A stretch of 64,000 nucleotides of DNA, from contig OZ252098.1 of NCBI GenBank assembly GCA_965248355.1, positions 3,616,001 to 3,680,000 of the forward strand, written 5' to 3'. Positions 42,525 to 42,836 of the stretch are shown one piece after another (position 1 is the first letter of the stretch; each line of letters opens with the position of its first letter). The position numbers and the translations under genes are program-made. Under the pieces are notes generated by a model, which saw nothing but the letters and a program-made list of their open reading frames with translations, did no database searches and was not told the origin of the DNA. This DNA comes from Candidatus Latescibacterota bacterium (GTDB taxonomy: Bacteria; Latescibacterota; UBA2968; UBA8231).

Positions 42525-42836
42525 ATGGCATTCGGCCTCTTCGCACAGAGACGGGACGGTCTCGGCGCCGGCATCGTGGTCCTGGCCGCGCTCGTGCTGG
42601 CCCTGTCCCTCTCCCTGCCCCTGCTGCACCACCTGCACCACGGCGGACAGCTCGAGATCGAGGAGTGCCCGGTATCGGCTCTCTCCTCCGCTCTCTCCCT
42701 CGGCGTCCTGGCGCTCCTCGGCCTGTTGCTCCTGGCGCCGCACCGCCGGGACACGCCTCTTCCCCACCCCAAGGCCATCGCGCCCCGCACCATCCACCTG
42801 GCCACCCAGGGCGCCCGCGCACCTCCCCGCTCCTGA
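42525..42836 (+). CDS. DUF2946-like leader protein with His/CxxS motif and C-terminal RAPP arrest motif
   Basis: TM helix, LHHLHH...EECPVS, second hydrophobic helix, Pro-rich tail ending GARAPPRS*. Lies upstream of a TBDR operon. Confidence 0.7.
   Translation: MAFGLFAQRRDGLGAGIVVLAALVLALSLSLPLLHHLHHGGQLEIEECPVSALSSALSLGVLALLGLLLLAPHRRDTPLPHPKAIAPRTIHLATQGARAPPRS

Follow-up and report, generated by a model that had tools for sequence, protein, structure and literature searches.

A putative CruR/DUF2946-like arrest leader with a His-Cys motif heads a lipoprotein and TonB receptor operon in Candidatus Latescibacterota

Metal-sensing arrest peptides are a recently recognised mode of gene control, of which only two examples have been studied, each in a proteobacterium and each responsive to copper. 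In a Candidatus Latescibacterota genome, a frame of 103 codons lies at the head of an operon for a His-rich lipoprotein and a TonB-dependent receptor, and the question raised by this locus is whether the frame encodes a regulatory peptide of the same kind and, if it does, which metal it would sense. We analysed the frame in the 64,000-nucleotide stretch of DNA that contains it (the window) together with its relatives in other genomes. An earlier note, made from the letters of the window, had described a transmembrane helix, HHLHH, CPVS, a second hydrophobic helix and a terminal RAPP in this frame, all of which read exactly as claimed. Its proposal that a RAPP leader akin to CruR/DUF2946 precedes a TonB-receptor operon in a lineage outside the Proteobacteria also agrees with the present data, the relatives being labelled Candidatus Latescibacterota. 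The leader is probably (at about 0.72) a regulatory peptide of the CruR/CutF (DUF2946-like) kind that works through membrane insertion, ribosome stalling, metal binding and control of the genes downstream, as proposed below. The features of the locus are collected in Table 1.

Table 1. Features of the leader, the intergenic RNA and the downstream genes (positions in the window)
Feature	Position	Strand	Remarks
Leader ORF, CruR/DUF2946-like putative arrest leader	42525..42836	+	103 aa; conserved among homologs
Hydrophobic helix 1, residues 13-34, predicted N-in/C-out	42561..42626	+	Hydropathy and charge distribution; AF2 helix 11-39, low confidence
HHLHH, residues 35-39	42627..42641	+	In the subfamily, H35 always and H39 almost always kept; H36/H38 confined to the clade
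CPVS, residues 48-51	42666..42677	+	Positional equivalent of DUF2946 CXXC; C48/P49 invariant, fourth position varies
Hydrophobic helix 2, residues 50-72	42672..42740	+	Hydropathy; AF2 helix 49-70
RAPP putative arrest motif, residues 98-101	42816..42827	+	Two sense codons ahead of the stop
Helix P0, 5' strand, last sense codon and stop	42831..42836	+	Pairs with 43000-43005 (predicted)
Stem P1, abutting the stop	42837..42894	+	Arms 42837-42848/42883-42894; inner hairpin CCGGCGG/CCGCCGG
Anti-Shine-Dalgarno GUUCUCCU	42895..42902	+	Pairs with 42983-42990 (predicted)
Two inner intergenic hairpins	42919..42973	+	42919-42936 and 42953-42973; predicted fold
Shine-Dalgarno region AGGAGAAC of the lipoprotein gene	42983..42990	+	Predicted paired
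His/Asp/Glu-rich lipoprotein, Ig-like beta sandwich, no named family	42996..43514	+	Lipobox LLAGC
Helix P0, 3' strand, lipoprotein codons 2-4	43000..43005	+	Pairs with 42831-42836 (predicted)
TonB-dependent receptor, ZnuD the closest solved relative	43518..45725	+	CarboxypepD_reg, Plug and barrel

The leader is built around two hydrophobic segments, both with Kyte-Doolittle windows above 1.6 (residues 13-34 and 50-72). The first is preceded by RR and followed by an acidic loop, and the net charge along the peptide, +2 up to helix 1, changes to -3 over the loop and to +6 over the tail. According to the positive-inside rule, these charges predict that the loop with the His and Cys residues lies outside the cytoplasm and the tail with RAPP inside. 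A low-confidence AlphaFold2 model (pLDDT 64) likewise places helices at residues 11-39 and 49-70, followed by a tail without structure (71-103). The C-terminus reads ...GARAPPRS and is followed by a TGA stop codon (42834-36). Profiles of Pfam and NCBIfam returned nothing useful for the leader. In related loci, promoter-like elements were seen by eye immediately upstream of it.

The lipoprotein gene begins 159 nt past the leader stop codon and is followed by the receptor gene, which bears out the claim that the leader is directly upstream of a His-rich lipoprotein and a ZnuD-like receptor. In this case "ZnuD-like" means a best NCBIfam match to ZnuD (NF038289) at 146.2 bits, well below the cut-off of 950 bits for that family. 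The mature lipoprotein contains 10 His, 21 Asp, 23 Glu and no Met residues, and has no Cys outside the lipobox. Its predicted model is confident (core pLDDT above 90) and shows a generic Ig-like sandwich; the fold search found generic Ig-like domains only, the best of them SbsC (E 3.7e-4), so the relatives of this protein give no hint of a metal.

A search of 5.8 billion proteins found 18 homologs of the leader with 55-93% identity (measured by BLASTP), all of which keep HHLHH, CPVS and the two prolines of RAPP, while R98 and A99 are present in at least 90%. Among 41 related genomes, a leader match was detected in 12, every one of them in a single family. A profile of the leader family had a match in 52 of 168 genomes of the phylum; when the window's own genome is set aside, these are distributed as 49 of 75 genomes of the same family, 2 of 13 of another one and none of 79 in the remaining twelve families pooled. 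Divergent homologs from other genera (25-34% identity) are also about 103 aa long, and an 18-sequence alignment that includes such homologs has P32, H35, C48, P49 and R98-A99-P100-P101 as its invariant residues; residues 73-97 are poorly conserved.

To avoid the circularity of a search based on the leader, a second conservation test was anchored on the better-conserved lipoprotein. It gave 54 loci, nearly all labelled Candidatus Latescibacterota (some Gemmatimonadaceae/Gemmatimonadetes), with three from Balneolaceae or Rhodohalobacter. In 48 of them the ORF upstream terminates in R[AG]PP (22 RAPP and 26 RGPP), and the feature therefore survived the check in syntenic relatives that the earlier note had asked for. 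Two of the remaining six loci have ORFs that end in RPPP or RSPP; in the other four (L064, L065, L068 and L069), which are second genome copies or partial matches, no convincing RAPP-type upstream ORF was found. The tail past the motif consists of exactly two codons and a stop in 43 of 50 loci. The spacing between CPxx and R(A/G)PP, which is 46 residues in the window leader, has the same value in 17 of 18 loci of the genus and family, as well as in 41 of those 43 loci from the lipoprotein-anchored set that have a detected CP motif. Conservation of the leader motifs and of synteny is far above chance.

The two convincing transmembrane segments, together with the conserved His/Cys site, might also belong to a stable inner-membrane protein with two helices, for example an accessory to metal handling or transport, in which RAPP would be structural or related to degradation, and in two loci (L038 and L026) the leader and lipoprotein are indeed present without the receptor. 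This explanation is very unlikely, as it leaves unexplained the fixed two-codon tail, the 46-residue spacing and the poor conservation of residues 73-97. Nor does it explain why RAPP and RGPP interchange, these two being the strongest stallers (PMC12992588), or why the stop region of the leader and the start of the next gene covary in their pairing (see below).

The regulatory-peptide reading is closest to what has been described for DUF2946. According to Roy et al. 2022 (PMC9426467), DUF2946 proteins carry CXXC, an export signal and a RAPP motif three residues short of the C-terminus, and their genes come first in operons for TonB transporters, ahead of a long intergenic region (162 bp in Bordetella); the published spacing between the Cys motif and RAPP is 45 +/- 1-2 residues, with 45 in CruR. 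The window leader has its RAPP at residues 98-101 of 103, a spacing of 46 residues, an N-terminal N-in/C-out segment (on the basis of hydropathy and charge) and a place at the head of a TonB-receptor operon, with a 159-nt gap followed by the lipoprotein and the receptor. What it lacks is the CXXC motif, which is CPVS here and in all 18 close homologs; the earlier note was right that Ser has taken the place of the second Cys.

The Pfam model of DUF2946, PF11162 (gathering cut-off 23.7 bits), has no match to the window leader at E<=1, and a scan of the whole genome gave nothing above the cut-off. Two sub-threshold matches in that scan were rejected as noise: one (L021) overlaps an NrdR-like gene, as judged from its translation, and the other (L020) is inside a 992-codon frame. 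The family profile, searched against 1.84 billion representative proteins, found 62 at E<=1e-3, one of which (P0033, 910 aa with 14 matched stretches) was excluded from the Pfam scan and the motif table as a likely repeat artefact. PF11162 matched 14 of the 61 scanned relatives at E<=1, all of them aligned through the last position of the model, and scored 3 above the cut-off, which makes the family a divergent sister or edge group of DUF2946. The link of the window leader to PF11162 is transitive, running through some of its relatives. This subfamily of Latescibacterota below the Pfam threshold, with its two-helix hairpin and HxxxH...CP core, is new.

The chain of homology to DUF2946 also bears on what is being monitored. 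RAPP arrest peptides were first discovered as monitors of Sec/YidC (PMC7897499, PMC10987492), and helix 2 of the window leader ends about 28 residues ahead of the putative stall site, where its insertion could exert a pull; the leader might accordingly report on membrane insertion or secretion, or on periplasmic redox, as opposed to metal, in the manner of ApdA, ApdP and SecM. We regard this as the least probable of the explanations considered here, because the homology leads to DUF2946, the invariant residues besides RAPP are His, Cys and Pro at the predicted periplasmic loop, and the genes downstream encode a lipoprotein and a TonB receptor instead of the Sec/YidC components that mark the ApdA/ApdP class.

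In a leader that responds to metal, the His and Cys residues of the loop would be the sensor. The fourth position of the Cys motif is labile: among 48 loci it is occupied by C (16 loci), Y (14), H (8), S (4), R (4) and G (2), and C, Y and G interchange even within near-identical loci, so CxxS is one of several variants. The remaining positions behave differently. H35 and C48 are unchanged throughout the 18-sequence alignment and H39 is altered in a single paralog set, which reads HHLDDCG...CPIS. Relatives positive for PF11162 have a His run ahead of CPxC as well, and across the subfamily, including members with a true CxxC and DUF2946 members scored by Pfam, H35 is invariant and H39 nearly so. 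The proposed gain of a His cluster is accordingly not supported as it was put, since only the two extra His residues of HHLHH are specific to the genus-level clade of the window. With H35, H39 and C48 kept and the fourth position variable, the conserved core is H-x3-H...C-P, and this pattern suggests that the sensor core can be His2Cys instead of CxxC.

Some genomes carry more than one variant. In one genus, the leader was detected in 26 of 31 genomes, many of them with two copies about 1.1 kb apart. Seven of the 12 tandem loci examined have the order leader (HQLFH...CPAY), lipoprotein, leader (HQLCH...H...CPAC), lipoprotein, receptor, and the gene order was checked by tblastn in five. In other genomes, operons of the CPVS and CPVC types are located at separate sites (L023 and L038). 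The variation in ligand sets is not simple drift. Both the dedicated lipoprotein partner and the tandem leaders with differing ligand sets are new.

As for the metal, copper is at least as likely as zinc, nickel or cobalt. We estimate its chances as close to even, those of zinc as lower and those of any other metal as lower still. It is conceivable, at somewhat less than an even chance, that the machine and its ligand are both those of CruR, in other words that the leader responds to copper, that His2Cys suffices, that CxxS reflects neutral drift at a dispensable position and that the operon imports copper. Close relatives differ freely at the fourth motif position, and true CxxC leaders head the same lipoprotein-receptor operon in paralogs (L038, L048, L056, L060) and in Balneolaceae (L073, L074). 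The His2Cys combination, a classical one for copper, points the same way. So does the fact that CruR and CutF, the two characterised relatives, both respond to this metal (PMC9426467; 10.1101/2025.02.05.636593). Other features of the operon fit copper less well. The receptor is far nearer to ZnuD (4rdr, E 2.7e-33) than to the copper receptor OprC (E 1.5e-11) among solved structures, and scores 71 bits against the TonB-copper model TIGR01778 compared with 146 bits against ZnuD. The mature lipoprotein, with no Met or free Cys, 10 His and 44 acidic residues, is unlike typical Cu(I) binders, and the retention of paralogs with distinct ligand sets in tandem in many genomes argues against pure drift. 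Three features speak for a divalent ion, zinc for instance: the ZnuD-like receptor, the Met-free His/Asp lipoprotein and the loss of the second, soft Cys. Inspection by eye of the regions upstream of the leaders revealed no Zur- or Fur-like box.

A more specific and distinctly more tentative idea is that the variants (HHLHH...CPVS, HxxxH...CPxH, HxxxH...CPxY and HxxCH...H...CPxC) determine selectivity or affinity, and that the HHLHH/CPVS type with its ZnuD-like receptor senses zinc (or nickel or cobalt). If so, this would be the first arrest peptide to sense a metal other than copper; a search of open-access papers and bioRxiv found no zinc-responsive RAPP leader, and the two RAPP papers among its results make no mention of zinc. 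Selectivity set by the ligands would also mean that tandem leaders gate one receptor operon by two metal signals in series.

Between the leader and the lipoprotein gene, the 159-nt RNA is predicted to fold at -92 kcal/mol (z = -2.8, matched by none of 200 shuffles), and its main helices are conserved. In relatives, stem P1 has 10-12 bp, begins 0-1 nt past the stop codon and encloses a variable insert, its 3' arm ending 0-4 nt ahead of the anti-Shine-Dalgarno UCUCC; with an energy of -10 kcal/mol or lower, P1 is present in 41 of the 43 distinct intergenic regions. The sequences of its arms vary with complementarity kept (GCAUCCGCAC/GUGCGGAUGC, GCAUCCACGC/GCGUGGGUGC, GCACCCGCGC/GCGCGGGUGC, GCAGCCACGC/GCGUGGUUGC). 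The predicted partner of the anti-Shine-Dalgarno is the conserved GGAGA of the lipoprotein gene. Helix P0 joins the leader tail to the lipoprotein start region, and its cognate duplexes have a mean energy of -13.1 kcal/mol compared with -5.3 kcal/mol for 1040 non-cognate pairs. It occurs in two unrelated sequence solutions (CUCCUGAGC/GCUCAGGAG and GGUGCUAG/CUAGCACC), each with compensatory changes. This covarying RNA clamp, which ties the leader stop to the next start, is also new; Rfam has no family that matches 42300-43200 at E<=1. P1 was considered as an intrinsic terminator and rejected: it is without a U-tract, and the terminator scan found none on the + strand.

A stalled ribosome covers the mRNA to about +15, so that with the Pro-Pro codons in the P and A sites its edge would be at the stop codon, abutting P1. 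In an equilibrium model, the mean cost of opening the lipoprotein start region falls from 13.4 kcal/mol in the free RNA to 10.3 kcal/mol with a ribosome at RAPP, while a control ribosome 30 nt upstream does not lower it (13.6 kcal/mol). The relief amounts to 3.1 kcal/mol on average and 1.4 kcal/mol in the window, and only 10 of the 43 loci gain as much as 5 kcal/mol. A ribosome at the leader stop codon gives equal relief (10.5 kcal/mol), so the polarity of the switch is not readable from the RNA. We rejected the stronger possibility that the parked ribosome frees the Shine-Dalgarno sequence, which remains paired in the model (unpaired probability at most 0.25 in the free RNA, and above 0.3 with a parked ribosome in L024, L025 and L054 only), and retained just the weaker claim of a lowered opening cost. 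The modelling thus supports a coupling between ribosome occupancy at the end of the leader and initiation downstream, but this coupling is unlikely to be the whole mechanism.

A second output may come from Rho. The transcript has a C>G bubble at about 42560-43080, with a minimum skew of -0.47 at 42760-42839 and values near zero in the flanking genes, and since the rut site of CruR is found within a similar bubble (PMC9426467), Rho-dependent attenuation is a live candidate for the second output. The strong structure of the intergenic RNA (-92 kcal/mol) is not ideal for Rho loading.

We propose the following sequence of events for the regulatory peptide. During synthesis, helix 1 would insert into the inner membrane and the short acidic loop would be displayed to the periplasm, with H35 and H39, from the end of helix 1, on one side and C48 (with position 51), from the start of helix 2, on the other. 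Once the ribosome is at RAPP with the two Pro codons in its P and A sites, peptide-bond formation would stall; RAPP and RGPP stall ribosomes in other species, and CruR gives toeprints with Pro-Pro in the same two sites (PMC12992588). At this point C48 would be about 52 residues from the catalytic centre, approximately the span of the exit tunnel plus the translocon, which would account for the fixed 46-residue spacing. Metal at the His2Cys site may change how the nascent chain is folded or tensioned, and in this way set the duration of the stall. The parked ribosome would cover the final two codons and the stop, blocking their pairing with the lipoprotein start region, and would also sit on the C-rich 3' part of the leader RNA. 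The duration of the stall would then govern expression downstream, through partial opening of the initiation region, through a block of Rho termination as in CruR, or through both.

Because the operon serves uptake, the likely polarity is that scarce metal gives a long stall and switches the operon on, and that bound metal leads to release and switches it off. The reverse is known from CutF, where copper-induced stalling melts a stem-loop that shields the ribosome-binding site of the next gene (10.1101/2025.02.05.636593). Applied to the present locus, metal would induce or prolong stalling, and stalled or stop-reaching ribosomes would activate translation downstream. The way helix P0 brings the leader stop and the next start together is compatible with this, as is the equal relief calculated for parked and terminating ribosomes. 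We consider it unlikely all the same, in view of the fact that inducing an uptake receptor with its own cargo would run counter to homeostasis and that CruR, likewise at the head of a TonB-receptor operon, has the other polarity (PMC9426467).

With this subfamily, the design of the metal-sensing arrest peptide appears to reach into an uncultured phylum, below the detection of the Pfam model. The natural series of ligand-set variants, some of them side by side in one operon, constitutes a ready panel for the determinants of metal specificity and also bears on how binding in the periplasm could be relayed to the ribosome over a distance of about 50 residues. A concrete and mutable read-out element is offered by the covarying RNA clamp.

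Among known systems, CruR (Bp2923) of Bordetella pertussis is the closest to the window leader. Both stand at the head of a TonB-receptor operon and have an N-terminal membrane or export segment, a Cys motif 45-46 residues ahead of RAPP, RAPP 2-3 residues from the stop, an intergenic region of about 160 nt, a high G+C content, and a C>G bubble that extends from the 3' half of the upstream ORF into the intergenic region. In contrast to CruR, the window leader has CPVS instead of CXXC, 103 aa instead of 145 and a second hydrophobic helix, and it is invisible to PF11162. It has a conserved HxxxH pair, whereas the cited part of the CruR account (PMC9426467) stresses CXXC, RAPP and a semiconserved Cys; that part describes no counterpart to the conserved anti-Shine-Dalgarno and stop/start pairing. 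The lipoprotein downstream belongs to no named family, and Latescibacterota is absent from the phyla named there for DUF2946 (Proteobacteria, a few Planctomycetes, Firmicutes and Deinococcus). The receptor itself resembles ZnuD of Neisseria meningitidis (PDB 4rdr) in that the plug and part of the barrel align, the plug being conserved; the alignment reaches only 118 bits, and the receptor has an extra N-terminal CarboxypepD_reg domain.

CutF of Rhodobacter capsulatus (10.1101/2025.02.05.636593) shares with the window leader a nascent exported peptide, Cys-based sensing of periplasmic metal (here proposed), a C-terminal proline stall motif and an RNA structure that shields the Shine-Dalgarno sequence of the next gene. 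Unlike the window leader with its RAPP, CutF uses CXXXC and an EF-P-dependent PPP, and it governs a detoxifying multicopper oxidase, switched on by copper-induced stalling, as opposed to an uptake operon.

Beyond these two cases, small ORFs with RAPP or RGPP upstream of TonB receptors are widespread in Gram-negative phyla, according to the survey of Chiba and colleagues (EMBO J 2025, PMC12992588), which may already list members from Latescibacterota. The window leader resembles the surveyed ORFs in its near-C-terminal motif, its localisation signal and its location upstream of TonB receptors or metal genes, and conserved Cys/His residues are reported there for some Streptomyces examples. It differs from them in the HxxxH...CP motif, the dedicated lipoprotein partner and the tandem copies, and in having two membrane helices where almost all TonB-linked products of the survey have signal sequences. 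With ApdA, ApdP and SecM (PMC10951233, PMC7897499) the window leader shares a stall at the peptidyl-transferase centre, which is putative here, at RAPP (RAGP in SecM). Release of those peptides is thought to require a pulling force on the nascent chain; they monitor Sec/YidC, precede sec genes and, in the cited descriptions, have no metal-ligand motif, in contrast to the leader described here, which precedes a lipoprotein and a TonB receptor and carries a conserved H-x3-H...C-P core.

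The leader-lipoprotein pair looks like the core module of this system, because two of the related loci (L038 and L026) possess both genes without a similar receptor downstream. The pair is followed in L038 by an enolase-superfamily gene and in L026 by PhyH dioxygenases encoded on the opposite strand. PhyH genes adjoin the module in L026, and one PhyH gene also lies 3' of the receptor in the window, where a small ORF with a heme-c-like motif is found as well (see table).

Of 12 loci examined from one group, 7 (L036, L039, L042, L047, L053, L046, and L050) have two tandem leader-lipoprotein modules preceding a single TonB receptor; this gene order was confirmed by tblastn in L036, L042, L047, L046, and L050. 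The first leader of these loci has the motif HQLFH...CPAY, and the second, HQLCH..H...CPAC, carries two extra Cys residues and one extra His. Paralogous leaders of a different arrangement are encoded in four genomes (G002, G004, G006, and G007; loci L013–L016), directly 5' of the receptor and with no intervening lipoprotein. Their motif is HHLDDCG...CPIS...SRAPP(P/L)S, in which the His motif has lost His and contains a Cys, and their receptors are 85–87% identical to the receptor of the window. Among the 62 representative proteins matched by the leader-family profile, the 910-aa protein P0033 matches it in 14 separate stretches, at profile positions 53–91, which is probably a repetitive hydrophobic artefact.

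Coordinates of features flanking the leader and receptor in the window and of the tandem leaders of L036
Feature	Position	Strand	Remarks
First ORF of pair	window 41307-41900	+	just 5' of leader; overlaps second ORF in a different frame
Second ORF of pair	window 41627-42481	+	just 5' of leader
PhyH-family 2OG/Fe(II) dioxygenase	window 45812-46819	+	downstream of receptor; Pfam E 1.8e-17
Small ORF, CADCH heme-c-like motif	window 46870-47193	+	downstream of receptor
Tandem leaders of L036	ends at 3366 and 4539

Neither ORF of the upstream pair has a Pfam or NCBIfam match. As their two-frame pattern recurs in relatives of the same genus, it reflects either a frameshift that has been conserved or two genes that abut. 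In L028-type loci, promoter-like elements (TTGAAT...TATACT or TTGAAG...CTAAAAT) were noted by eye ~10–40 nt 5' of the leader start codon; at so short a distance, the mRNA of the leader would have almost no 5' untranslated region. Farther 5', many loci also show, again by eye, the inverted repeat TTGCC-N7-GGCAA.

Low-GC relatives of the operon in Rhodohalobacter/Balneolaceae (L073–L075) also have upstream ORFs, in which RAPP or RSPP is followed by longer tails of 4–5 residues. With a single N-terminal hydrophobic segment, no second helix, and a true CxxC (CVIC, CAVC, or CPVC), these ORFs are nearer to canonical CruR, the copper-responsive DUF2946 leader of Bordetella pertussis.
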